A stretch of DNA of 64,000 nucleotides from NCBI RefSeq assembly GCF_963921235.1, contig NC_086097.1:119042001-119106000 (forward strand), written 5' to 3'. The position numbers were made by a program, and so were the translations under genes. Shown here in pieces: positions 8,819 through 57,166 of the stretch (positions are counted from its first letter, which is position 1; each line of letters opens with the position of its first letter). The DNA is from Mobula hypostoma (lineage: Eukaryota). The notes under the pieces are model-generated. The model was not told the DNA's origin. It made no database searches and saw nothing but the letters and a program-made list of their open reading frames with translations.

Positions 8819-8874
8819 TTTGCATAACTGGTGAAAGAAAACTCCATCTCAGCTTGTGAGTAGAACAGGAGGTT

Positions 8875-9155
8875 TGTGTGTTTGAGTATGTGTATGTGTG
8901 TGTCTATGTGTGTGAGTCTGTGTGAGTGTGAGTGCGAGTGTGTGAGTGCAAGTCTGTGCACCAGTGCGAGTGTGAGTGTGTGTCTGTGAGTGGGAGTGTG
9001 TGTGTGTGTGTGTGCGTGAGTATGAGTACGAGTATGTATGTGTGTGTGAGGCTGTGTGAGTGTGAGTGCGAGTGTGTGTGCGTGTGTGCATGTGTGCGGG
9101 CATGTGAGTGCAAGTCTGTGCACCAGTGTGAGTGTGAGTGTGTGTCTGTGAGTGG

Positions 9156-9196
<41 letters not shown>

Positions 9197-9280
9197 AGTG
9201 CAAGTATGTATGTGAGTGTGAGTCTGTGTGAGTGTGAGTACGAGTGCCTGTGTATGTGTGCATGTGTAGGGGGTGTGTAA
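8875..9280. repeat. Compound (TG)n/(TGAGTG)n microsatellite with internal duplication
   Basis: TG-rich tract; block tgtgagtgcaagtctgtgcaccagtg at about 8941 and 9103. Confidence 0.92.
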
Positions 9281-9519
9281 TGACACTGACCCTGTGCAGA
9301 TTTCCCAGCAGAACTGCTGCAGAATTCGAGCAAAACTTGTTCTGTGAAATGGAACCCTATAGCAGAGGGCAGGTGAAAAACTGCCATGATATTTGACCAA
9401 ATAAATGAAAATTTTGCAATTGTTCAGAGTCTCAAAACTTGCAAGCACCACCAATTTAACAATAACATATTTTGCTCATTATTTTGTGGAATTAACTAGC
9501 AAGAATAGCTCCTTGATAT

Positions 9520-10628
9520 CGTGGTTTCCCTTCTGCTGTCATCAATGATGCCCTCACCCGCAGCTCCTCCATTTCCTGCACTTCGGCCCTCACCCCATCC
9601 TCCCGCCACCACAACAGGGACAGAGTTCCCCTTGTCCTCACCTACCACCTCACCAGCCTCCGGATCCAGTACGTTATCCTCCGCAACTTCCGCCACCTTC
9701 AACAGGACCCCACTACTAAGCACATCTTTCCCTCTCCACCCCTCTCCACTTTCCGCAGGGATCGGTCCCTCCGCGACTCCCTGATCCACACGTCTTTCAC
9801 CACTGATCTCCCACCCGGCACTTATCCCTGTAAAAGCAAGTGCTACACCTGTCCCTACACCTCCTCTCTTGCCACCATTCAGGGCCCCAAACAGTCCTTC
9901 CAAGTGAGGCAACACTTCACTCGTGAGTCTTTTGGGGTCATCTATTGAATCCGGTGCTCCCAGTGCGGCCTCCTCTACATTGGTGAAACCCGACGCAGAT
10001 TGGGAGACTGCTTCGTCGAGCACCTCCACTCCATTCGCCACAACAGACAGGACCTCCCAGTAGCCACTCACATCAGCTCTGCTTCCCACTCCCATTCAGA
10101 TATGTCCATACATGGCCTCCTCTACTGCCATGATGAGGCTAAACTCAGTTTGGAGGAGCAACACCTCATATACCGTCTAGGTAGTCTCCAGCCCCTTGGT
10201 ATGAACATAGAATTCTTCAACTTCCGGTAATTCCCTCCCCCTCCCTTCCCCTATCCCTATGTCACTTTGCCTCCTCCCCCAGCTGCCTACCACCTCCCTC
10301 TTGGTTCCGCCTCCTTCTACTACCCATTGTGTTTTCCCCTATTCCTTCTTCACCTTTCCTGCTTATCGCCTCGCTGCTACCCCTCCCCCACCACTTTATC
10401 TTTCCCCTTACTGGTTTTTCGCTGGGAACCTACCAGCCTTCTCCTTCCCACCCTCCCCCTACCTTCTTTATAGGGCCTCTGCCCCTTCCCCCTACAGTCC
10501 TGACGAAGGGTTCTGGCCCGAAATGTTGACTGATCGTTTCCACGGATGCTGCCCGACCTGCTGAGTTCCTCCAGCATGTTGTGAGTGTTGCTTTGACCCC
10601 AGCATCTGCAGATTATTTTCTGTTTTAA
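9520..10628 (+). mobile_element. 5'-truncated Penelope-like element (linker + GIY-YIG + 3' UTR)
   Basis: RGFP...GVIY*IRCSQCGLLYIGETRRRLGD...GMNIEFFNFR; 13-bp TSD agctccttgatat (9507-9519/10629-10641). Confidence 0.92.
10495..10532 (+). ncRNA. Minimal hammerhead ribozyme motif (decayed)
   Basis: cagtc CTGACGA agggttctggccc GAAATGTT gactg. Confidence 0.65.
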
Positions 10629-21949: not shown

Positions 21950-22677
21950 AGAAACATAGAAACATAGAAAATAGGTGCAGGAGTAGGCCATTCGGCCCTT
22001 CGAGCCTGCACCGCCATTTATTATGATCATGTCTGATCATCCAACTCAGAACCCAGCCTTCCCTCCATACCCCCTGACCCCTGTAGCCACAAGGGCCATA
22101 TCTAACTTCCTTTTAAACATAGCTAATGAACTGGCCTCAACAGTTTGCTGTGGCAGAGAATTCCACAGATTCACCACTCTCTGTGTGAAGAAGTTTTTCC
22201 TAACCTCGGTCCTAAAAGGCTTCCCCTCTATCCTCAAACTGTGACCCCTCGTTCTAGACCTCCCCAACATCGGGAACAATCTTCCCGCATCTAGCCTGTC
22301 CAATCCCTTTAGGATCTTATACGTTTCAATCAGATCCCCCCTCAATCTTCTAAATTCCAACGAGTACAAGCCCAGTTCATCCAGTCTTTCTTCATATGAA
22401 AGACCTGCCATCCCAGGAATCAATCTGGTGAACCTTCTTTGTACTCCCTCTATGGCAAAGATGTCTTTCCTCAGATTAGGGGACCAAAACTGCACACAAT
22501 ACTCCAGGTGTGGTCTCACCAAGGCCTTGTACAACTGCAGTAGTACCTCCCTGCTCCTGTACTCGAATCCTCTCGCTATAAATGCCAGCATACCGTTCGC
22601 CTTTTTCACCGCCTGCTGTACCTGCATGCCCACTTTCAATGACTGGTGTATAATGACACCCAGGTCTCGTTGCACCT
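21950..22677 (-). mobile_element. Young 5'-truncated CR1 LINE
   Basis: Open 209-aa ORF with [19 protein letters not shown]...RRLRGDLIETYK...FFTQRVVNLWNSLP; (atgtttct)n tail. Confidence 0.95.
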
Positions 22678-23138
22678 AGGACAGTTTTGATAAACTGGAG
22701 ATGGACGATAGGGTTGAGCAGACATATTTTACATGAATTGCTCAATTCAATAATGGGAGACTCAAGACAACAAACACAACAGAACAAGCCATGTGCTATC
22801 AAATGTTTGCATTAGAAGCAGTGTGTTGCTCGGGGACAAAATGAAGTTGAGTTTGGATGATAGGAACTCAAGGGAAATCAATGGTAAAGTCTGGGGTTAG
22901 GTTTGAAAGTAGAGAGGTAAATAGATAGCCCCCACACCTCTACTATATTTGGAAGCAAAGGCTTGAATTTGGCAGATATGTTGCTTTAAGTTTGCCAAAA
23001 CCAATCTGAGAACATGGTGTTATTTAAGGGCATTGCAAGAAAAGTTTGGACAGTAATATCCAAATGCTACTGGGTATTCTTAGCCTCTGTATTTGAAACC
23101 CCCTGTGAACAGATGACCCAAAACCAACTTGCTGACCT

Positions 23139-23264
23139 GACGAAGGGTCTCGGCCTGAAACGTCGACTGTACCTCTTCCTAGAGATGCTGCTTGGCCTGC
23201 TGCGTTCACCAGGAACTTTGATGTGTGTTGCTTGAATTTCCAGCATCTACAGAATTCCTGTTGT
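23139..23264 (+). mobile_element. 126-bp PLE 3' tip starting in the hammerhead core
   Basis: gacgaagggtctcggcctgaaacgtcgact...cctgttgt; 10-bp TSD ttgctgacct (23129-23138/23265-23274). Confidence 0.85.
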
Positions 23265-23414
23265 TTGCTGACCTTCACAACTCGTGCAATAAATACTGGT
23301 TTTGATAAAGCTATACAGGTTGTTTTTGTTTATTATTTGATATTTCATATGGTTTCCATATTTAAATGCTGATGTACTATCTGCTCCAATGATTCTTGGC
23401 AAAACAGTTGGGCC

Positions 23415-23645
23415 TTTTATATTTATTGACATGCAATATGGAGTAGGCTCTTTCAGCCCTTCGACCCACGCCAGCCAGAAATCTCACAACATAATCCTAG
23501 CCAAATCATGAGACTCGAGACAATTGTCACGAGACAATTTATAATGACCAATTAACCTACCAACCAGGTACATCTTTGTAATGTGGAAGGAAACACTCCC
23601 CGTCATGGGGAGAAAATACAAATTCCTTACAGGCAGTGTGGGATT
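23415..23645 (-). mobile_element. HE1-like V-SINE
   Basis: rc of V-domain and CR1-type tail, as at 1180. Confidence 0.6.
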
Positions 23646-23976
23646 AAGCAATGTAATAACACTGGTGAGATAGCAACTGGGCCATCACTGGTACAAGTGG
23701 ACAACTGCTAAATGAAGTGAGAAGGAACCTGGAAAATGGAAACAGGTACAGCGTCAGGGTGATGGATGGTGCCATTTCTATTTGGAGTTTGGATTCATGC
23801 ATAAATTGTTAAGGCATAGCTCTGTGCATGTGATGCCAACAGAGTAATGAAAGAAAATAAACAACCATGTGTGATTTCAAACAACAGGAATTCTGCAGAT
23901 GCTGGAAATTCAAGCAACACACATCAAAGTTGCTGGTGAACGCAGCAGGCCAAGCAGCATCTATAGGAAGAGGCGC

Positions 23977-24012
23977 AGTCGACGTTTCAGGCCGAGACCC
24001 TTCGTCAGGACT
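23977..24012 (-). ncRNA. Minimal type I hammerhead ribozyme (PLE)
   Basis: rc agtc CTGACGA agggtctcggcct GAAACGTC gact; stem I agtc/gact; palindromic ACGT stem III. Confidence 0.8.
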
Positions 24013-24305
24013 AACTGAAGGAAGAGTGAGTAAGGGATTTGAAAGCTGGAGGGGGAGGGGGAGATGCAAAATGATAGGAGAAGACAGGAGGGGGAGGGAT
24101 AGAGCCGAGAGCTGGACAGGTGATAGGCAAAAGGGGATACGACAGGATCATGGGACAGGAAGTCCGGGAAGAAAGACGGGGGGGGGTTGACCCAGAGGAT
24201 GGGCAAGAGGTATATTCAGAGGGACAGAGGGAGAAAAAGGAGAGTGAGAGGAAGAATGTGTGCATAAAAATGAGTAACAGATGGGGTACGAGGGGGAGGT
24301 GGGGC

Positions 24306-26388
24306 CTAGCGGAAGTTAGAGAAGTCAATGTTCATGCCATCAGGTTGGAGGCTACCCAGACGGAATATAAGGTGTTGTTCCTCCAACCTGAGTGTGGCTT
24401 CATCTTTACAGTAGAGGAGGCCGTGGATAGACATGTCAGAATGGGAATGGGATGTGGAATTAAAATGTGTGGCCACTGGGAGATCCTGCTTTCTCTGGCG
24501 GACAGAGCGTAGATGTTCAGCAAAGCGGTCTCCCAGTCTGCGTCGGGTCTCACCAATATATAAAAGGCCACATCGGGAGCACCGGACGCAGTATATCACC
24601 CCAGTCGACTCACAGGTGAAGTGATGCCTCACCTGGAAGGACTGTCTGGGGCCCTGAATGGTGGTAAGGGAGGAAGTGTAAGGGCATGTGTAGCACTTGT
24701 TCCGCTTACACGGATAAGTGCCAGGAGGGAGATCAGTGGGGAGGGATGGGGGGGACGAATGGACAAGGGAGTTGTGTAGGGAGCGATCCCTGCGGAATGC
24801 AGAGAGAGGGGGGAGGGAAAGATGTGCTTAGTGGTGGGATCCCGTTGGAGGTGGCGGAAGTTACGGAGAATAATATGTTGGACCCGGAGGCTGGTGGGGT
24901 GGTAGGTGAGGACCAGGGGAACCCTATTCCTAGTTGGGTGGTGGGAGGATGGAGTGAGAGCAGATGTACGTGAAATGGGGGAGATGCGTTTAAGAGCAGA
25001 GTTGATAGTGGAGGAGGGGAAGCCCCTTTTTTAAAAAATGAAGACATCTCCCTCGTCCTAGAATGAAAAGCCTCATCCTGAGAGCAGATGCGACGGAGAC
25101 GGAGGAATTGCGAGAAGGGGATGGCGTTTTTGCAAGAGACAGGGTGAGAAGAGGAATAGTCCAGATAGCTGTGAGAGTCAGTAGGCTTATAGTAGACATC
25201 AGTGGATAAGCTGTCTCCAGAGACAGAGACAGAAAGATCTAGAAAGGGGAGGGAGGTGTCGGAAATGGACCAGGTAAACTTGAGGGCAGGGTGAAAGTTG
25301 GAGGCAAAGTTAATAAAGTCAACGAGTTCTGCATGCGTGCAGGAAGCAGCGCCAATGCAGTCGTCGATGTAGCGAAGGAAAAGTGGGGGACAGATACCAG
25401 AATAGGCACGGAACATAGATTGTTCCACAAACCCAACAAAAAGGCAGGCATAGCTAGGACCCATACGGGTGCCCATAGCTACACCTTTAGTTTGGAGGAA
25501 ATGGGAGGAGCAAAAGGAGAAATTATTAAGAGTAAGGACTAATTCTGCTAGACGGAGCAGAGTGGTGGTAGAGGGGAACTGATTAGGTCTGGAATCCAAA
25601 AAGAAGCGTAGAGCTTTGAGACCTTCCTGATGGGGGATGGAAGTATATAGGGACTGGACATCCATGGTGAAAATAAAGCGGTGGGGGCCAGGGAACTTAA
25701 AATCATCGAAAAGTTTAAGAGCGTGAGAAGTGTCACGAACATAGGTCGGAAGGGATTGAACAAGGGGTGATAAAACAGTGTCGAGGTATGCAGAAACGAG
25801 TTCGGTGGGGCAGGAGCAAGCTGAGACAATAGGTCGGCCAGGATAGGCAGGTTTGTGGATCTTGGGTAGGAGGTAGAAACGGGAAGTGCGGGGTGTGGGA
25901 ACTATAAGGTTGGTAGCAGTGGATGGGAGATCCCCTGAGCGGATAAAGTCGTTGATAGTGTGGGAGACAATGGCCTGGTGCTCCTTAGTGGGGTCACGAT
26001 CGAGGGTAAATAAGAGGAGGTATCCGCGAGTTGTCGCTGTGCCTCGGCAAGGTAGAGGTCAGTACGCCAGACTACAACAGCACCCCCCTTATCGGCGGGT
26101 TTAATAGTAAGGTTAGGATTAGTGCAGAGGAAGTGGAGAGCAGAGCGTTCCGAAGGAGTGAGGTTGGAATGGGGACAAGGTGCGGTGAAGTCGAGACGGT
26201 TGATGTCCCGTCGGCAGTTAGCGATAAAGAGATCCAGAGCAGGCAGAAGACCAGAGCGGGGTGTCCATGAAGAAGAGGAGGGTTGAAGACGGGAGAAGGG
26301 GTCATCGGTGGGGGTGGAAGAGTCCTTGCCGAAGAAGTAGGCTCGGAGACGGAGACGGCGGAAGAAAAGTTCCGCATCGTGGCGAACA
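24306..26388 (-). pseudogene. PLE reverse transcriptase + GIY-YIG endonuclease, frameshifted, 5'-truncated
   Basis: KPADKGGAVVV, FYLLPKIHK, GRPIVS, MDVQSLYTSIP, GVAMG, RYIDD, FLDL, GVIYCVRC..CGLLYIGET; three 1-nt deletions (about 26005, 25030, 24810). Confidence 0.93.
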
Positions 26389-26422
26389 ATCGCAAGATCC
26401 TACATCTACGGACTTATTTACC

Positions 26423-28122
26423 CTCGATCGTGACCCCACTAAGGAGCACCAGGCCATTGTCTCCCACACTATCAACGACTTTATCCGCTCAGGGGATCTC
26501 CCATCCACTGCTACCAACCTTATAGTTCCCACACCCCGCACTTCCCGTTTCTACCTCCTACCCAAGATCCACAAACCTGCCTATCCTGGCCGACCTATTG
26601 TCTCAGCTTGCTCCTGCCCCACCGAACTCGTTTCTGCATACCTCGACACTGTTTTATCACCCCTTGTTCAATCCCTTCCGACCTATGTTCGTGACACTTC
26701 TCACGCTCTTAAACTTTTCGATGATTTTAAGTTCCCTGGCCCCCACCGCTTTATTTTCACCATGGATGTCCAGTCCCTATATACTTCCATCCCCCATCAG
26801 GAAGGTCTCAAAGCTCTACGCTTCTTTTTGGATTCCAGACCTAATCAGTTCCCCTCTACCACCACTCTGCTCCGTCTAGCAGAATTAGTCCTTACTCTTA
26901 ATAATTTCTCCTTTTGCTCCTCCCATTTCCTCCAAACTAAAGGTGTAGCTATGGGCACCCGTATGGGTCCTAGCTATGCCTGCCTTTTTGTTGGGTTTGT
27001 GGAACAATCTATGTTCCGTGCCTATTCTGGTATCTGTCCCCCACTTTTCCTTCGCTACATCGACGACTGCATTGGCGCTGCTTCCTGCACGCATGCAGAA
27101 CTCGTTGACTTTATTAACTTTGCCTCCAACTTTCACCCTGCCCTCAAGTTTACCTGGTCCATTTCCGACACCTCCCTCCCCTTTCTAGATCTTTCTGTCT
27201 CTGTCTCTGGAGACAGCTTATCCACTGATGTCTACTATAAGCCTACTGACTCTCACAGCTATCTGGACTATTCCTCTTCTCACCCTGTCTCTTGCAAAAA
27301 CGCCATCCCCTTCTCGCAATTCCTCCGTCTCCGTCGCATCTGCTCTCAGGATGAGGCTTTTCATTCTAGGACGAGGGAGATGTCTTCATTTTTTAAAAAA
27401 GGGGCTTCCCCTCCTCCACTATCAACTCTGCTCTTAAACGCATCTCCCCCATTTCACGTACATCTGCTCTCACTCCATCCTCCCACCACCCAACTAGGAA
27501 TAGGGTTCCCCTGGTCCTCACCTACCACCCCACCAGCCTCCGGGTCCAACATATTATTCTCCGTAACTTCCGCCACCTCCAACGGGATCCCACCACTAAG
27601 CACATCTTTCCCTCCCCCCCTCTCTCTGCATTCCGCAGGGATCGCTCCCTACACAACTCCCTTGTCCATTCGTCCCCCCCATCCCTCCCCACTGATCTCC
27701 CTCCTGGCACTTATCCGTGTAAGCGGAACAAGTGCTACACATGCCCTTACACTTCCTCCCTTACCACCATTCAGGGCCCCAGACAGTCCTTCCAGGTGAG
27801 GCATCACTTCACCTGTGAGTCGACTGGGGTGATATACTGCGTCCGGTGCTCCCGATGTGGCCTTTTATATATTGGTGAGACCCGACGCAGACTGGGAGAC
27901 CGCTTTGCTGAACATCTACGCTCTGTCCGCCAGAGAAAGCAGGATCTCCCAGTGGCCACACATTTTAATTCCACATCCCATTCCCATTCTGACATGTCTA
28001 TCCACGGCCTCCTCTACTGTAAAGATGAAGCCACACTCAGGTTGGAGGAACAACACCTTATATTCCGTCTGGGTAGCCTCCAACCTGATGGCATGAACAT
28101 TGACTTCTCTAACTTCCGCTAG
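26423..28122 (+). pseudogene. PLE reverse transcriptase + GIY-YIG endonuclease, one internal frameshift
   Basis: LDRDPTKEH...RYIDD...FFKK, frameshift at about 27400, then RGFP frame to GIY-YIG...GMNIDFSNFR*. Confidence 0.93.
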
Positions 28123-28414
28123 GCCCCACCTCCCCCTCGTACCCCAGCTGTTACTCATTTTTATGCACACATTCTTCCTCTCACTCTCCTTTTTCTCCCT
28201 CTGTCCCTCTGAATATACCTCTTGCCCATCCTCTGGGTCAACCCCCCCCGTCTTTCTTCCCGGACTTCCTGTCCCATGATCCTGTCGTATCCCCTTTTGC
28301 CTATCACCTGTCCAGCTCTCGGCTCTATCCCTCCCCCTCCTGTCTTCTCCTATCATTTTGCATCTCCCCCTCCCCCTCCAGCTTTCAAATCCCTTACTCA
28401 CTCTTCCTTCAGTT

Positions 28415-28450
28415 AGTCCTGACGAAGGGTCTCGGCCTGAAACGTCGACT
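28415..28450 (+). ncRNA. Minimal type I hammerhead ribozyme (PLE)
   Basis: agtc CTGACGA agggtctcggcct GAAACGTC gact; predicted cleavage 3' of C28446. Confidence 0.8.
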
Positions 28451-28661
28451 GCGCCTCTTCCTATAGATGCTGCTTGGCCTGCTGCGTTCACCAGCAACTT
28501 TGATGTGTGATGTGTGATTTCAACTTTGATGTCTATAGTACTGTATAGTAAGTCAAAGAGTAGGCTATTTGGTTATATTCTGTTAAGCCTTCCAATTAAA
28601 GAAGTTAACTTTCTTTTTTTTAAATATTGATACTTTCTACCCTATCCCCTTCATGTTGTGT

Positions 28662-28895
28662 TGGGCACATGGCCAAGTGGTTAAGGCGTTCGTCTAGTTA
28701 TCTCAAGGTCGCTAGTTTGAGACTCAGCTGTGGCAGTGTGTTTGTGCCCTTGAGCAAGGCACTTAATCACACATTGCTGTAGTCTGTGCGAGGAGTGGCG
28801 GCCCACACAGACTTCCAATCTGCGCCTTGTAAGGCATGAAAATGCCCGACGCAGGCCTCTCATGGTCTGAGTCGATGTTCCCTCCCCTCCCTCCA
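28662..28895 (+). mobile_element. tRNA-derived SINE, same head as 14259 but different tail
   Basis: tggccaagtggttaaggcg...ccttgagcaaggcacttaa; ends ggtctgagtcgatgttccctccc. Confidence 0.65.
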
Positions 28896-29724
28896 CTCCT
28901 CCCTTTCATGTCTCAATCGTTACTTTTCTCACTGTAAAATGCTTAAATTTTTAAATAAATCGCATTGCTGTTTAAAAGAATACATTGACATAATTAGCTG
29001 CACACCTTATTCATACTATCAGTGTTTCTGATGACTGCAGGCTGTTTACATTCATCCAAATCCTATGAGGAGAGTTGAAGGCCACACCACAGGGCCTACC
29101 TAACTTTGTAGAAAATTAGCTTGTTGCTGCTCCTTTGCCTCTGATGAGAAACCTCGGACAAGTATATCTGTTCAACACTTCACTGTGCAGTAGTTGTTGG
29201 AGATTTTTCAAGAAAGATTGATGGCAATATTTAATTGTAAAATCTGTCATCAAGAAAGAGAGAGAAAATGAAATATTGATCCAAATAGGAAAAAAAAACC
29301 TCAATGCTTATTCTAGTTTGTCTCCATTTGACCTGTCTGTAAAACATACACAGTTGCAACACATGCAAAGATCTCTCATACTAAAGACTTTACAATGTTA
29401 CATATCCACACCTTTTTTCGTTATTATCAAGGAAAGTGCAAATTTGCTTTTCATTAGTTGGAAAAGGCCTGGCACCTTCTGTGCATGTTCTCAATGATCT
29501 AGTATCAATGGGATTTATCATCCCAGTTTTTTTTATATAATATTATAAATGGCCTTTGCAGAGAGGTTAATGTCATTGCTGGCATGTTGACTTATAAAGA
29601 AGTCAACCAAAAAGACAGTAGTATAAAATATTGTAATTGTTTTATATTTAGTATTATATCACAATAGTTATTCTTCTAATATGAGTGGAAGTCTTTTAAT
29701 TTAAAGGATATAATACAACAGAAA

Positions 29725-30388
29725 AAAGATAAAGATAAAGATTAGCTTTACTTGTCACTTGTATATCAAAACATACAGTGAACTGTATCAGTTGCCATTT
29801 AATCAAATCAACGAGGATTGTGCTGGGCAGCCTGCCAGTGTTGCCACACTCTTAGCACAAACATAGTCTACCTGCAAATCGCTAACCCTAACCTATGTGT
29901 CTTTTGAACGTGGGAGGAAAGGGGAGCACCTGGAGTAAACCCACATGGTCATGTAGTGAATGTACCAATTCCATATGGACAGCAGCAAGAATCAAACTGC
30001 AAGCTTGCAGCCAGTGCTGTAAGACATTGCGCTCAATGCTATGCTACTGTTTTGCCCCACTCTGCTACCATGTCACCCGATAAAGATTAATGTTACTTGT
30101 CCTATGTACGTTAAAACATGTCATTAGCATCAACTCAAATCAGCGAGGATTGTGTGAGGCAGCCCACAAGTGTCATCATGCTTACAGCGCCAAAGTAGCA
30201 TGCCCGTAGCTCACCTAACAATACATCTTTGGAATGTAAGGGGACACCGGAGCACCCAAAAGAAATCCAGGTGATCATGGGTAGAATGTACAAACACCTT
30301 ACAAACAGTAGCAGGAATTGATCCTTGATAGCTGATTGCTGGTGCTGTAAAGCATTATGCTAATTGCTACACTACCGTGTTTCCCCCA
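29725..30388 (-). mobile_element. Two tandem V-SINEs with (atcttt)n tail
   Basis: Repeated gaggattgtg..ggcagcc..c.agtgt and V-domain; related copies near 34294, 38705, 58860, 60270, 63120. Confidence 0.7.
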
Positions 30389-31646: not shown

Positions 31647-34293
31647 ATAGTGAGGCGACCAGAACTGAGCACAGTACTCCAAGTGGGGTCTGACCAGGGT
31701 CCTATATAGCTGCAACATTACCTCTTGACCTCTAAACTCAACCCAAGATTAATAAAGGCCAATGCACCATATGCCTTCTTAACCATAGAGTCAACCTGCG
31801 CAGCGGCTTTGAGTGTCCTATGGACTCGGACCCTAAGATCCCTCTGATCCTCCACACTGCTAAGAGTCTTACTATTAATGCTATATTCTGCCATCATATT
31901 TGACCTACCAAAATGAAACACTTTACACTTATCTGGGTTGAACTTCATCTGCCATTTCTCATCATATCAATGTCCCGTTTTGCATCCTATCAATGTTCCC
32001 CTGAAATCTCTGACAGCCCTCCACACTATTCATAACGCCCCCAGCCTTTGTGTCATCGGTAAATTTACTAACCCATCCCTTCACTTCTTCATCCAGGTCA
32101 TTTATAAAAATCACAAAGAGTAGGGATCCCAGAACAGATCCCTGAGGCACACCGCTGGTCACCGACCTCCATGCAGAATATGACCCATCTACAACCACTC
32201 TTTGCCTTCTGTGGGCAAGCCAGTTCTGGATCCACAAAGCAATGTCCCCTTGGATCCCATGCCTTCTTACTTTCTCAAAGCCTTTCATGGGGTACCTTAT
32301 CAAATGTCTTGCTGAAATCCATATACACTACAGCGACTGCTCTACCTTCATCAACGTGTTTAGTCACATCCTCAAAAATTTCAATCAGGCTCGTAAAGCA
32401 CGACCTGCCTTTCACAAATTCATGCTGACTATTCCTAATCATATTATCCTTCTCCAAATGTTCATAAATCCTACCTCTCAGGATATGTTCCATCAACTTA
32501 CCAACAACTGAAGTAAGACTCACTGGTCTATAATTTCCTAGGCTATCTCTACTCCCTTTGTTGAATAATGGAACAAGACCTGCAACCCTCCAATCCTCTG
32601 GAACCTCTCCTGTCTCCATTGATGATGCAAAGATCATCGCCAGAGGCTCAGCAGTCTCCTCCCTTGCCTCCCACAGTAGCCTGGGGTATATCTCGTCTGG
32701 TCCCGGTGACTTATCCAACTTCTTGCTTTCCAAAAGCTCCAGCACATCCTCTTTCTTAATATCTACATGCTCAAGCTTTTCAGTCCACTGTAAGTCATCC
32801 CTACAATTGCCAAGATCCTTTTCCATAGTGAATATTGAAGGAAAGTACTCATTAAGTACTTCTGCTTCCTCTTCCGGTTCCCTACACATTTTTCCACTCT
32901 CACACTTGATTGGTCCTATTCTCTCACATCTTATCCTCTTGGTCTTCACATACTTGTAGTATGCCTTGGGGTTTTTGTTAATCCTGTCCACCAAGGCCTT
33001 CTTATGGCCCCTTCTGGCTCTCCTAATTTCTTTCTTAAGCTCCTTCCTGCTTGCCTTATAATCTTCTAGATTTCTATCATTACCTAGTTTGTTGAACCTT
33101 TTGTAAGCTCCCCTCTATCATTACCTAGTTTTTTGAACCTTTCTTAAGCTGAAAATAATTAACAGTATTAGCTGACTAGATGTTACTTGTAAATTTTCCA
33201 TATTCCTATAACCAGCTTAAAATTCTTTCTTTTTGCTTTAATACTTATTGTTTACACTTAGACAAAGTTCCTTGTTTCTCTCTGGATTGATTCTGTTGGT
33301 ACTCTGCACTCACTCTGCCTCCAATTTAGACCACAAGATTATAAGACATAGGAGCAGAATTATTCCATTTGGCCCATCAAGTGCTCTACTATTCAATCAT
33401 GAATTATTTATTTTCCTTCCCAGCCCCATTCTCCTGCCTTCTCCCCATAACCTTTGAATCCCTTCCTAATCAAGAACCTATCAACCTCTGTTTTAAATAC
33501 ACCCAACTTGGCCTCCACAGTCGCCTGTGGCATGATTTCCACTGATTCATTACTGGTTTGGTTCATTTCTTCAAAGATGTTGTGCCACGTGTAAATATGG
33601 AGTTGGCTCTGGGTTTTGTTCAGTTTTCAGCCTGGTGATAACTTAGATCCAAGTTCAATGTACAGGGGCAACAAAATACTGCATTCTGGTATCAGCTAGG
33701 GGAGCAGATGATAACTGGTTGGGGATCTGGAAGAACTTGCAGACTGAGTTTTTGTAACATTTTGTAGCAACAAGTTAATATATATTTGGACATATACATG
33801 TTTGGGCAAAAACTAGCAGGTTGAAAAGTCTGCATTTGATTTTTGAAATTCTGTTCCATGGTAATTCGAAAATATATAACTGCTCCTTCATGATTGTTAC
33901 ATAAAGATGCTGGAATTCACAACCCGACAGCTCCACAGAAATGCCAACACCAGAAGGACAGCAGAAAACCAAGTGAGCTTCTCACCTTCAACTCCTCAAG
34001 GGCAGCTTGGGAAGGGCAATAGATACCAGTCACCGAATGATAGACAGGTCATACAAGTAATAAAAGCAAACAGCTATGCTCACAAGATTGCAATTCATAT
34101 ATCTCATAGGAGGAATTATGTAAATAGATATACAAGCAAGTGACAGAAATGTGTAAGAGCAATAAGAGATAATAATGGTGGAGTTTAACTTTGCTAATAC
34201 TAGTTGGGATTGCCTCAGTACAAGGAGCTCAAATGTGGCAGATTTTCGAGAAAGGTTTTGAAACAATGTGTAAAGAGGTGTTATATGTAAAGT

Positions 34294-41936: not shown

Positions 41937-42339
41937 ATATTCAGACTTCCAAAACATGTCACTTCACACTTTTCCAGATTGAAACCCATCTGCAACTTCT
42001 CATCAAAGTTGCTGGTGAATGCAGCAGGCCAGGCAGCATCTCTAGGAAGAGATACAGTCGACGTTTCAGGCCGAGACCCTACATCAGGACTAACTGAAGG
42101 AAGAGTTAGTAAGAGATTTGAAAGTGGGAGACGGAGGGGGAGATCCAAAATGATAGGAGAAGACAGGAGGGGGAGGGATGGAGCCAAGAGCTGGACAGGT
42201 GATTGGCAAAGGGGATATGAGAGGGTCATGGGACAGGAGGCCCAGGGAGAAGGAAAAAGGGGAGGGGGGAAAAATCCAGAGGATGGGCAAGGCGTATAGT
42301 CAGAGGGACAGAGTTCCTCCAACCCGAGACGAACTGATT

Positions 42340-42649
42340 TCCAAAAAGGCATAAAGTTAAAGATGACACGTTTCTTTAATATTTTAAGGAAGAAAACTTT
42401 TTTTTGTTTCGATCTTTTACAGTTTCAAAATAACAAAAAAGGAAAAGAGCCTGAAGCAAAAGTTTGGAATCCCTGCATGGTCAGTAGTTAGTAACACCCC
42501 CTTTGGCAAGTATCACAGCTTGTAAATGCTTTTTATAGCTAGCTAAGAGTCTTTCAGTTCTTGTTTGGGGGATTTTTGTCCATTCTTCCTTGCAAAAGGC
42601 TTCTAGTTCTGTGAGATTCTTGGGCCGTCTTGCATGCACTGCTCTTTTG
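42340..42649 (-). mobile_element. Tc1 transposase C-terminus and 3' flank, no termini
   Basis: KRAVHARRPKNLTELEAFCKEEWTKIP...LQAVILAKGGVTNY*. Confidence 0.85.
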
Positions 42650-43131
42650 CGGGGATCAGTGTTGAGAATGCTTCTTTTTAATGTTTCCATTCTGATGTCC
42701 CATTCTGACATGTCTATCCACGGCCTCCTCTACTGTAAAGATGAAGCCACACTCAAGTTGGAGGAACAACACCTTATATTCCGTCTGGGTAGCCTCCAAC
42801 CTGATGGCATGAACATTGACTTCTCTAACTTCCGCTAATGCCCCACCTCCCCCTCATACCCCATCCGTTATTTATTTTTATACACACATTCTTTCTCTCA
42901 CTCTCCTTTTTCTCCCTCTGTCCCCCTGACTATACTTCTTGCCCATCCTCTGAGTTCCCTCCCGCTTGTCTTTCTCCCTGGGCCTCCTGTCCCATGATCC
43001 TTTCATATCCCTTTTGCCAATCACCTGTCGAGCTCTTGGCTCCATCCCTCCCCTTCCTGTCTTCTCCTATCATTTTGGATCTCCCCCTCCCCCTCCCACT
43101 TTCAAATCTCTTACTAACTCTTCCTTCAGTT

Positions 43132-43167
43132 AGTCCTGACGAAGGTTCTCAGCCTGAAACGTCGACT
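43132..43167 (+). ncRNA. Minimal hammerhead ribozyme motif (PLE)
   Basis: agtc CTGACGA aggttctcagcct GAAACGTC gact; mirror copy at 42056-42091 has a mutated core. Confidence 0.7.
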
Positions 43168-43896
43168 GTACCTCTTCCTAGAGATGCTGCCTGGCCTGCT
43201 GCGTTCACCAGCAACTTTGATGTGTGTTGCTTGAATTTCCAGCATCTGCAGAATTCCTGTTGTTTGCCACTTCACAACTCAGTTCCGCATCCTATCAATT
43301 TCCTATGGTAACCTACAACATCCTTCTAGACTATTCAGAACATCACCAACCTTTGAGTGATCTTCAAACTTGCTAGCCCATCCGTCCACTTCCCCAACCA
43401 AGTTATTTATAAAATATCACAAAGAGCAGGGGTACCAGAACAGATCCCTGAAGAACACTACTGATCTCTGAACTCCAGGCAGAATATGCTGGATCTACTA
43501 CGACCCTCTTCTCCTGTGGACAAGCCAATTCTGAATCCACGCAGCCAAGTTTCCCTGGAACACATGCGTCCTGACTACCTGTGTGTGAGTAGCATGTACT
43601 GTAGCTGTACGTTCATCCCCCTTGTACCTGGTACTTTACGCATTAAAATAGACACATTTCAACCTATTCACTGACTGCAGTTATGCACTTTCTACAGCTT
43701 ATCTTTCTTCACTCAGCATACTACCATTATAGCAACTGCTGCATCCTCTGCCTTATAACTCTAGTTGCTATCCCCCTGTCCAACCAGTTTAATCTCTCTC
43801 CTACAACTCCAGCAAACATATCTGCAATAATATTTGCCCCTCTTGAGTAAGGTGTCAGGTTGTTACCTTTTGTAGAGATCACACCTTCCCCAGAAG

Positions 43897-49170: not shown

Positions 49171-49488
49171 AGGATTCAAAGGTTCATTTAATGTCGGAGA
49201 AATGTACACAATATACATCCTGAAATGCTTTTTCTTCGCAACCATCCACGAAAACAGAGGAGTGCCCCAAAGAATGAATGACAGTTAAATGTTAGAGCCC
49301 CTAAGTTTCCCCCAGCTCCCCTCCCTCCCACGCGTAAGTGGTAGCGAGCAACAATCCCCCCTCCCCACCGGCAAAAAATGAAGTGCACCCACTGCCGGCA
49401 ATCAAGCGTGAGCTAAGCCATAGCAAAGATACAGACTTGCAGTTACCCCAAAGACTACACTGCACTCACAGTTACTGAGGGAATCCTC

Positions 49489-49529
<41 letters not shown>

Positions 49530-49697
49530 ATGGGTCACTACGCCTGATCTGAGGTCTTAGGCAGAAGAGAATGGAGCGCCGGCCGGGCGATACCGGAGGG
49601 CAGTGTGCGACTGCTGGCAGGTGGGCGAGAAGGCGGACCGACCCAGCACGCGCCAGCTCCCCGCCGTTGGCAGGTGCCGAGCAGCTGCGCCTCACGC
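49171..49697 (-). mobile_element. Chimeric retrocopy: ITS2-28S pre-rRNA joined to a retroelement 3' end
   Basis: 9-bp TSD aaatattaa (49162-49170/49698-49706); 49171-49462 matches the 55081 family. Confidence 0.8.
49463..49556 (-). rRNA. 28S rRNA 5'-terminal fragment (dispersed pseudogenic copy)
   Basis: rc gacctcagatcaggcgt...gaatttaagcatattactaagcggaggaaaagaaactaacgaggattccctcagtaac is the conserved LSU 5' end. Confidence 0.93.
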
Positions 49698-54272: not shown

Positions 54273-54879
54273 ACAGCCCCTGTGCTCCTCCTTGAAGCAG
54301 AATCTATCCTTAGCCTAATGCTGGTATCTGCGTGAGGCCTTTACTGAGCCTGAGATTATAGATTGTGGTAGTGGATGTTTCCACTGCCTTTGATGGCCCT
54401 CATTGCCTCATGGATGTTCAGCTTTGACCTGTTCTGAGCCTAACTCACATGAATATTTAGGCAGCATACAACATGATGGAAGGAGTCTTTAAATGAGGAC
54501 AGTTTAATGGCTATTGAAGCCATTGAAAGATCCTATCCTATCCTTATGAAATGTATGTGTACATTAGAGAAGGTATTGCCTTGTGCTTTGATCTCCAAAA
54601 TCAGTGTGTTGTTTTCAGGATTGCACACCAATTCCACAACCTATGGACTTACTTTCAAGAACTCTACAACTTATATTCCCCGCATCATTTATGTATTATT
54701 ATTACTATTTGTTTCTTTTTTGCATTTGCACAGTTTTCTTTCTTTTGCACATTGGCTGTCAGTCTTTGTGTGTCGTGCTTCAGTAGTGATAACATACACA
54801 TACTTTGATAAGAAATTTACTTTGAACTTTGATCTTTTTCTCCTTAATGTGATAGTATTACACATAAAATTCAACATTG

Positions 54880-57166
54880 CAGAAATTGCAGGGGCCATAG
54901 CAGAGATAGTTAAAACATGCCTAGCGACAGGAGAGGTACTAGAGGAGTGGAGGATAGCCAATGTTCTGCTGTTTAAAAAAGGCTCTAAACATAAACCAGA
55001 AAATTATAGTCCATTGAGTCTGACATCAGTTGTGGGAAAGTTATTGAAAGGTATTCTAAGGGAGCACATACATAAGAATTTCAAAGGTTTCAAAGGTGCA
55101 TTTCATGTCAGAGAGATATATACGATATACATCTCGAAATACTTCTTCTTCGCAACCATCCATGAAAAACAGAGAAATGCTCCCAAAGAAGGAATGACAG
55201 TTAAATATTAGGATCCCTAAGCCCCCACCAGCTCCCCTCCCTCCCACGAGTAAGTTGCAGCAAGCAACGATCCCCCCTACCCCCACCAGCAAAACAAAAC
55301 ATTGGCCACCAAGCACTCAAGCATGAGCAAGGTAACAGCAAAGACAGAGACTTGCAGTGCTCCAAAGACTGTGCGTTCACCCGGTATTCGACAAACCACA
55401 GGCTCTCTCTCTCTTTTCCTAATAAGGGATAAAGAGGTGTCTCCGTTTCACAGCGAAAGGGGAGACATAACAAACAACTCACTGGTGTATGATGTTAAAA
55501 GTTTGTTGCGTCGCTTTTTCTGGGCTCTGTGCCCAAAGATCTCAGGTTTCTGGGCACACAGCCTTTGATCTTCCCATGACACACCAATCTTCTGCCCGAC
55601 CTCCAATCCCCCTGTCTCCACAGCCAAGAAATTGGGGACCTCCAAAGGCGAGTGAAGCCCTTAGGCCACGGTCTTTGTGTGTCGAATAACGGCAAGTCGT
55701 GAAACCCTGAGAGCGGATCGCATTCCTGCAAAGAACCGTAGTCAGCATGTAACTCCAGGTCAAGGTCTTCAAAAGAACCCTGAAAGGGAAAATAGAGATA
55801 CTAAAGATGGAAATAGAGCTGTTTCTGAAGTTGCAAGCAAAGGAGTCACCGTTAGGCTCCATTGTCTCCTGGATAGACATGGGCTGATTAAGGATAATTA
55901 GCATGGCTTCATGAGGGGTAGATCATGTCCAACCAAACTTATAAAATTTTGAGGAAGTTATGAAGAAAGTGGATGAAGAAAAATAAATGTTGTCCACATG
56001 GACTTTATTAAGGCATTTGACAAGGTCCCACATGGGAGGTTGGTCAAGAAGATTCAGTCACTCGGCATTCAGGATGAGACAGTAAACTAGATTAGACATT
56101 GGCTTTTTGGGAGAAGTCAGTGAGAGGTAATAATTGGTTGCCTCTCTGACTGAAGCCCTGTGATTAGTAGTGTGCTGCAGAAATCACTGCTGGGTCCTTG
56201 TTTGTCCTCTATATCAATGATAATGTGGTTAACCGGATCAGCAAATTTGTGGATGACACCAAGACTGGGAGTGTAGTGGACAGTGAGGAAGACTATCATG
56301 GCTTGCAGAGGGATCTGTATCAGCTTGAAAACTAGGCTGAAAAATGGCAGATGGAATTTATTACAGCCAAGTGCAAGGTTTTACACACTTTTGTAGGACC
56401 AATCAGGGTAGGTCTTACACAGTAGATGGTAGGGTACTGAGGAGTGTGGTAGAACAAAGGGATCTGGGAATACAGTTCCATAATTCACTGAAAGTGGCAT
56501 GGCAGGTAGGTAGGGTCGTTAAGGAAGATTTTGGCGCATGGGCCATCAAAACTCAATCTATTGAGTACAGGAGATGGGATGTTATTTTGTAGTTGTATAA
56601 CACACTGCTGAGGTCTAATTTAGAGTCCTGTGTGAAGTTTTGGTCACCTACCTACAGTAAAGGTGCAAACGAGGTTGAAAGAGTACAGAGAAAGTTTACA
56701 AGTATGTTGCTGGGTTTGGAGAACCTGAGTTATAAGAAAAAATTGAATAGGTCAGGACTGTATTCTTTAGAATGTAGAAGATTGAGAGGAGATATGATAA
56801 AGGTATAGAAAATTTTGAGCGGCATAAATAGAGTAAATGCAAGCAGGCTTTTTCCACTGAGGTTGGGTGGAATGACAGCCAGAGGTCTTGGGTTAAGGGT
56901 GAAAGGTGAGAAGATTACGGTGAACCTGAGGGGAAACTGATTCACTCAGAGAGGCATGGGAGTGGGGAGCATGTTGCCATCACAAGGGGTGCATGCGAGC
57001 TTGATTTCAACATTTAAGATAAGTTTAGATGGGTACATGGATAGTAGGGTCATGAAAGGCTATGGTCCCAGTGAAGGTCGATGGAAATAGGCAGCTTAAA
57101 TGGTTTTGGCATTGACTAGATGGTCAAGAGTCCTGTTTATGTGTTGTACTTCTCTATGACTCTATG
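54880..57166 (+). mobile_element. CR1 LINE relic split by 55081-55870
   Basis: NYSPLSLTSVVGKLL, AFDKVPH, FVDDTK, RRLRGDMIKV; (tctatgac) tail. Confidence 0.9.
55081..55870 (-). mobile_element. Apparently full-length non-autonomous retroelement with (cctttgaaa) tail
   Basis: Cleanly interrupts CR1; 3' part is shared with 12085 and 49171. Confidence 0.7.

Follow-up and report, generated by a model that had tools for sequence, protein, structure and literature searches.

In the twin priming of L1, both ends of the cut target prime cDNA synthesis and one target site duplication (TSD) surrounds an internally inverted insert. The second primer starts internally; the resulting insert is inverted at its 5' end, its parts do not overlap and only one end has poly(A). 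Among Penelope-like elements, the inverted elements described in the available part of PMC3846280 were bounded by pseudo-long terminal repeats (pLTRs), had TSDs of 9 and 10 bp and carried a 31-bp tail on one end, the head-to-head arrangement being the commonest. The tail has been reported to occur at either of an insertion's ends (PMC8557442, in the portions available). In vitro, the Poseidon element of the lizard Anolis carolinensis (PAc) cut and extended both strands of its target, two reverse transcriptase (RT) start sites bounded its tail, and a dimer was predicted (PMC11167929). The origin of the inverted structures and of their one-sided tails was stated as open both there and in the accessible text of PMC8557442. 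The current study concerns a palindromic Penelope-like insertion in a 64,000-nt stretch of Mobula hypostoma DNA (GCF_963921235.1, NC_086097.1:119,042,001-119,106,000, + strand), hereafter the window.

The left part of the insertion was reverse-complemented and aligned with the right part. The alignment confirmed the two inverted, nearly identical arms of 2097 nt each that had been noted in a preliminary description of the sequence (Table 1). The differences between them are limited to one substitution (24281/28147) and two C/G runs, near 24186/28241 and near 24813/27614, whose lengths differ by one base each. The 398-bp spacer between them (26015-26412) consists, as had been claimed, of additional element sequence and about 24 nt of filler, which was placed at about 26389-26412 because the similarity to the closest homologous protein extends to 26387. 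The window contains exactly two copies of the 14-mer ATGTGTGATTTCAA, both on the + strand and directly outside the outer ends of the arms, and the view that a single direct repeat encloses the entire unit was therefore correct. The left end has the 37-nt tail described earlier and the right end has none, with the refinement that 3 further nucleotides belong equally to the tail and the TSD (element identity extends to 23878). In all four sequencing runs of the contig comparison described below, contigs of the family that continued past 28509 entered the identical tail sequence (403, 394, 274 and 324 loose ends), indicating that the tail is part of the element.

This architecture is textbook, as far as the available portions of PMC3846280 and PMC8557442 go. 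Pen2a_Av and Pen2_Av of Adineta vaga (PMC3846280; scheme in Figure 2 of PMC8557442) likewise have head-to-head arms with the 3' ends facing outward, a one-sided tail of 30-40 nt and a short TSD around the unit. The Mobula locus differs in that its arms are 2.1 kb long, whereas the pLTR measures about 0.2 kb, and in that there is no palindrome at the apex, where 374 nt of unpaired element sequence and 24 nt of filler are found instead; neither arm is full length. The novelty implied by the preliminary description was thus not supported, since insertions with a truncated inverted copy, a tail on one side and an enclosing TSD are what has normally been described, and only the arm length and the freshness of the copy stand out. 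The contrast drawn with L1 twin priming did hold: both arms contain the same 3' end, they overlap by 2097 nt and there is no poly(A) (see also the accessible part of bioRxiv 10.1101/2024.12.14.628481). PAc resembles the locus in having a hammerhead motif followed downstream by a tail between two 3' end positions, and in that both target strands can be extended. However, PAc belongs to a clade, Poseidon, without the linker zinc finger that is present here, and it initiates without homology to the cut DNA, while the junctions of the Mobula insertion show overlaps of 3-7 nt. Unlike the Neptune and Nematis elements discussed in the available text of PMC8557442, the target is not a (TA)n microsatellite.

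The Penelope-type identity claimed earlier was borne out by domain matches and homologues. The arms encode RT (Pfam RVT_1 at E 1.4e-05, which does not reach the curated cut-off) and, C-terminal to it, a GIY-YIG domain (22.7 bits, the cut-off being 22.6; E 1.2e-04), and they are colinear with single homologues of 889 and 904 amino acids across the frame breaks. Among the best 120 of 663 matches, the closest was a Chiloscyllium punctatum protein with 76% identity, the other named matches were from marine invertebrates and the remainder were unlabelled, with no clade names. Three motifs are given as features of the Neptune and Nematis clades in the portions of PMC8557442 at hand, 1) DKG, 2) a CX2-5CxxC linker and 3) CxxC within GIY-YIG. 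The arm translations contain the first as ADKGG, the second as CX4CxxC (CKRNKCYTC) in the linker from RT to the endonuclease, and the third between GIY and YIG as VIYCVRCSRCGLLYIG, where the two cysteines of a putative CCHH zinc finger are seen. By these motifs, the element is assigned to the endonuclease-bearing Penelope-like elements of Neptune/Nematis type, the two clades not being separated. A motif scan with the minimal hammerhead-ribozyme definition of PMC4209133 (from its accessible text) found a candidate core with palindromic 15.2-16.2 positions in each arm, while Rfam gave no hammerhead match over 22500-29500, only a chance match to sR40.

Both arms are 5'-truncated, the longer one beginning about 200 codons into the full-length homologue. 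Two frame breaks are common to both arms (near 26010/26421 and near 25035/27390) and a third, near 24812, is found in the left arm only. Neither copy could produce the protein. The family contigs are roughly ten times deeper at the 3' end of the arm than at the 5' end, a pattern typical of abundant families that truncate at the 5' end, although summed contig depth was not taken as copy number. Searches for other copies with their flanks gave 0 matches in metagenome contigs with two patterns, 7 matches in prokaryote genomes, all of them in unrelated bacteria by title, and 0 confirmed relatives in viral contigs.

The contig comparison comprised four of 23 listed runs, two from each of two samples, and a target stretch of 26015-30000, which covers the right arm and the right flank. 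The two organisms in this comparison, A and B, differ by about 2.8% in the flanks (23 differences in about 820 nt and 26 in 928). In one sample, two 440-nt contigs of organism B gave a gapless alignment that starts exactly at 28510 and ends at 28690, with 4 mismatches; the 259 nt that they carry ahead of 28510 contain none of the element. Counting 259 nt back from the left TSD leads to 23608, inside a dispersed repeat, and the right end of the alignment likewise falls at a repeat (28664 onward); contigs of this kind break in repeats, which would explain both ends. The organism B site is consistent with the empty site that had been proposed as a check. The contigs match the right flank and the 14-mer up to its first base, and the 259 nt would correspond to the left flank. 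The TSD around the whole unit and this apparent empty site in a related organism support the earlier claim of one insertion event. Joints on the opposite strand at 26015/26421 were considered as support for the central junction and rejected, as they are better read as ordinary family contigs that extend beyond the target stretch.

That the unit is a young single insertion is well supported. The arms differ by substitution at 1 of 2097 sites, compared with the flank divergence of about 2.8% between organisms A and B. Of 267 variable positions, the filtered contig listing gave 40, among which 16 lie in the arm, and at four of these 16 (26583, 27334, 27492 and 28284) both arms agree while at least 98.9% of the family depth in run X1 reads another letter. 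The rare alleles shared at four positions indicate that the arms derive from one donor sequence. At the one substitution between them, the family contigs read T, as does the left arm. Shared rare alleles would also fit gene conversion. Conversion can act within long palindromes, which can also be lost by excision between short direct repeats, and the unit may have arisen or been homogenised at the DNA level after a simpler insertion, either as an inverted duplication at a break or by conversion between the arms of an older structure that the relative has lost by excision between the 14-mers. Such an origin is very improbable, as an independent insertion repeats the tail asymmetry at a fixed position, there is no inverted duplication of target DNA, and the arms of an older pair in the window were not kept alike, which makes youth the simpler explanation. 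The least credible alternative, two independent insertions at one site, could draw on the great abundance of the family suggested by contig depth, but only one TSD exists, the centre has none, and the arms carry the same rare alleles.

The independent insertion is an older two-armed copy of the same family (41991-43278). Its inverted arm (42001-42313) lacks the tail and its other arm (42698-43266) has it; the two differ at 21 of 307 sites. The arms enclose about 380 nt of unrelated sequence, which may be a Tc1-type fragment. The two flanks align to an uninterrupted copy of the target repeat (31896-32078) and overlap on 31950-31964, which points to a decayed TSD of about 15 nt. A solo stump of the family, 133 nt long (23136-23268; 23126-23277 with its 10-bp duplication) also carries the tail, and starts at the edge of the hammerhead core.

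We favor, at a probability of roughly 0.55, a reading in which both target strands were primed at two fixed start sites that bound the tail and the two cDNAs were then end-joined. The locus itself records one insertion, one donor and 3' ends at two fixed positions, and the position of the tail-less end recurs within 4 nt in the older insertion, a point in favor of this reading. In the proposed sequence of events, the GIY-YIG domain would nick the two target strands 14 nt apart. One 3'-OH would prime reverse transcription at the end of the tail with 3 nt of pairing, while the other would prime at an inner start site about 40 nt upstream with 7 nt of pairing, where one 7-nt slip would leave the 7-mer twice. 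The cDNAs would end early, after about 2.5 and 2.1 kb, and their ends would be joined with the 24-nt filler in between. The shared rare alleles and the two shared frame breaks suggest that the template was a single RNA, or RNAs of one defective donor locus, presumably copied by protein made in trans.

The junctions agree with this scheme only in part. Priming by microhomology would leave a word shared once at each 3' junction. At the tail end, 3 nt are shared once with the TSD; at the tail-less end of the older pair, the target has about 5 nt in common with the element, present once, but the site has since diverged. In the window, all three tail-bearing ends of the family continue with TTG, which forms the first TSD letters on the element strand at both of those with a clean TSD, and this fits either 3-nt primer pairing or a cutting preference. 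At the tail-less end, the element ends in ATGTGTG and the TSD starts with ATGTGTG. The match reported earlier is real, but the 7-mer stands twice, in an 18-nt tract of period 7. Coincidence is unlikely, as the 7-mer is found elsewhere in the window at 18 of 118,400 positions. Annealing and extension leave such a word once, so an extra 7-nt slip is required, and priming by microhomology at this end did not hold up in the form in which it was claimed. The junction would represent a microhomology product with one 7-nt duplication, made at initiation or during repair.

Several considerations weigh against two-strand priming, which is plausible and has a precedent in vitro (PMC11167929) but was not distinguished from the fold-back of one cDNA. 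No evidence at this locus tells the two apart, and one locus cannot decide. The doubled 7-mer calls for an added slip. In PAc, of the Poseidon clade, RT initiated at RNA sites that are not homologous to the primer (PMC11167929), which speaks against a need for microhomology in that clade at least. Fold-back, a serious but less probable alternative, would also be one event. The top strand would prime at the tail end and RT would proceed to 26388, where the cDNA end would acquire the filler, re-prime on itself about 375 nt back and be copied toward the 3' end. At the tail boundary, synthesis would stop or the cDNA be cleaved, perhaps by the endonuclease of the element itself, and the product would be joined to the other end of the target through the 7-nt match with one slip. 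The identical rare alleles, which demand one donor, and the shared frame breaks are automatic under fold-back, and the tail sits on the longer arm in both two-armed insertions of the window, as fold-back requires. An imperfect inverted match of 6-7 nt at the turn, between the end of the long arm and sequence just beyond the start of the short arm, is borderline: with 7 nt of the long-arm end included, in a comparison chosen after looking, 82 shuffles of the filler out of 2000 scored at least as high. In the literature, PMC3846280 prefers self-priming for the inverted junctions and PMC8557442 assigns the tail to endonuclease resolution of an intermediate, in what is available of each. Conversely, the apex has no palindrome and the filler alone does not appear to be templated. 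Its score as an inverted match at the turn was reached by 685 of 2000 shuffles, its longest match to the element (9 nt) by 182 of 1000, and its longest match near the breakpoints (8 nt) by 218 of 1000. The tail boundary, moreover, is an RT start site in vitro (PMC11167929), and the occurrence of the tail at either end (PMC8557442, available text) is not easily compatible with strict fold-back from a tail-bearing cDNA.

Two further adverse points concern the contigs. The identity of the 259 nt with the left flank is presumed from their length, not from their letters, and no listed organism A contig bridges the centre or the right junction, although this filtered list of the right arm proves nothing either way. 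Near-perfect long palindromes are a known long-read artefact, and the missing bridge at the centre, together with two homopolymer differences that could be consensus errors, would be compatible with a chimeric fold-back read or with arms equalised by polishing. An assembly artefact is nevertheless scarcely credible. The flanks are unique on both sides and carry the TSD, the contig of the relative begins to align exactly at the TSD, the tail asymmetry is typical of the family, the apex holds unpaired element sequence and filler, and the one true substitution between the arms has the left-arm letter in the family contigs.

The target itself resembles the end of the element. The last 3 nt of the right TSD and the next 9 nt of the flank (28521-28532) repeat a 12-nt word of the element end, 28495-28506. 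In a test picked after the match had been seen, none of 4000 random window stretches of the same size reached 12 nt and 5 of 4000 reached 11. The word is apparently native to the target, as it seems to be present in the related organism as well. The TSD is similar, too, to the tail boundary once 8 nt are taken out, and in the best duplex 12 of its 14 nt are paired, with a loop of this kind between them; RNA parameters were applied to the DNA-RNA pairs, so these energies are a rough guide only. These features suggest a speculative and rather doubtful variant in which RNA-DNA pairing beside both RT start sites engages the target. The inner site would be used first, with a telomerase-like round of copying and realignment that yields the doubled 7-mer, and the tail would be RNA left free and used by the second strand as it displaces the first cDNA. 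The 12-nt match would be a trace of homology-assisted target choice. If true, this variant would explain the one-sided tail, the head-to-head arms and the identity of the arms in one step. The possibility that the target was itself an older stump insertion of the family, given the element-like words on both sides, was rejected, as no flanking duplication was apparent by eye and a 7-nt match was at chance level.

An 11-nt word occurs at 23273-23283 and 43270-43280, within 10 nt behind both other tails and nowhere else in the window, and the target of the palindromic insertion shares 5 nt of it at a similar distance. With three sites only, a target preference is possible.

Table 1. Features of the palindromic insertion, in window coordinates
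Feature	Position	Strand	Basis
TSD, left copy, 14 bp; last 3 nt also match the element tail end	23867..23880	+	sequence match
Element tail, 37 nt, left arm only	23881..23917	-	arm alignment; family contigs past 28509
Left arm, mirrored part: RT core, linker zinc finger, GIY-YIG, 3' untranslated region, candidate hammerhead motif	23918..26014	-	
Candidate minimal hammerhead-ribozyme motif, left arm	23981..24008	-	motif scan, PMC4209133 pattern (accessible text)
Unpaired continuation of the left copy toward the element 5' end, with DKG motif	26015..26388	-	protein similarity
Filler at the head-to-head junction, 24 nt	26389..26412	.	beyond the end of protein similarity
Right arm, 5'-truncated, tail-less	26413..28509	+	arm alignment, translations, homologue comparison
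Candidate minimal hammerhead-ribozyme motif, right arm	28419..28446	+	motif scan
Period-7 tract spanning the tail-less junction, 7-mer twice	28501..28518	+	
TSD, right copy, 14 bp	28510..28523	+	related-organism contigs begin aligning exactly at 28510
12-nt target word equal to element end 28495-28506	28521..28532	+	sequence match; gap-free related-organism contigs over 28510-28690

The literature searched contained no explicit model of two-strand priming for the inverted Penelope structures, a weak negative since most subscription papers, including older Penelope reviews, lay outside it, and the available part of PMC9977147 has nothing on inverted insertions. What the locus offers is a very young insertion with long arms, junctions that can be read and an apparent empty site in a relative, and its value as a clean junction record is modest. 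Given the abundance of the family, a census of junctions could decide between two-strand priming and fold-back, and the same census could test whether targets resemble the element end. Near-perfect palindromes of several kilobases made at insertion may also feed local instability.

A copy of an older related Penelope family, about 78% identical, is located at 9520-10625, with its own variant hammerhead-like motif and tail. Just upstream of it, at 8853-9290, is a CA-rich tandem array with a spacing of 8-14 nt. Open reading frame fragments resembling long interspersed nuclear elements, presumably CR1-like, are present at 32275-33114, 22046-22675 and 54477-55211; in the domain scan, the first matched RVT_1 and the second gave no RVT_1 match. 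Finally, a fragment of 80 nt that matches the 5' end of eukaryotic large-subunit rRNA (Rfam RF02543, 57.4 bits) was found on the minus strand at 49455-49534 and is possibly a retroposed piece.

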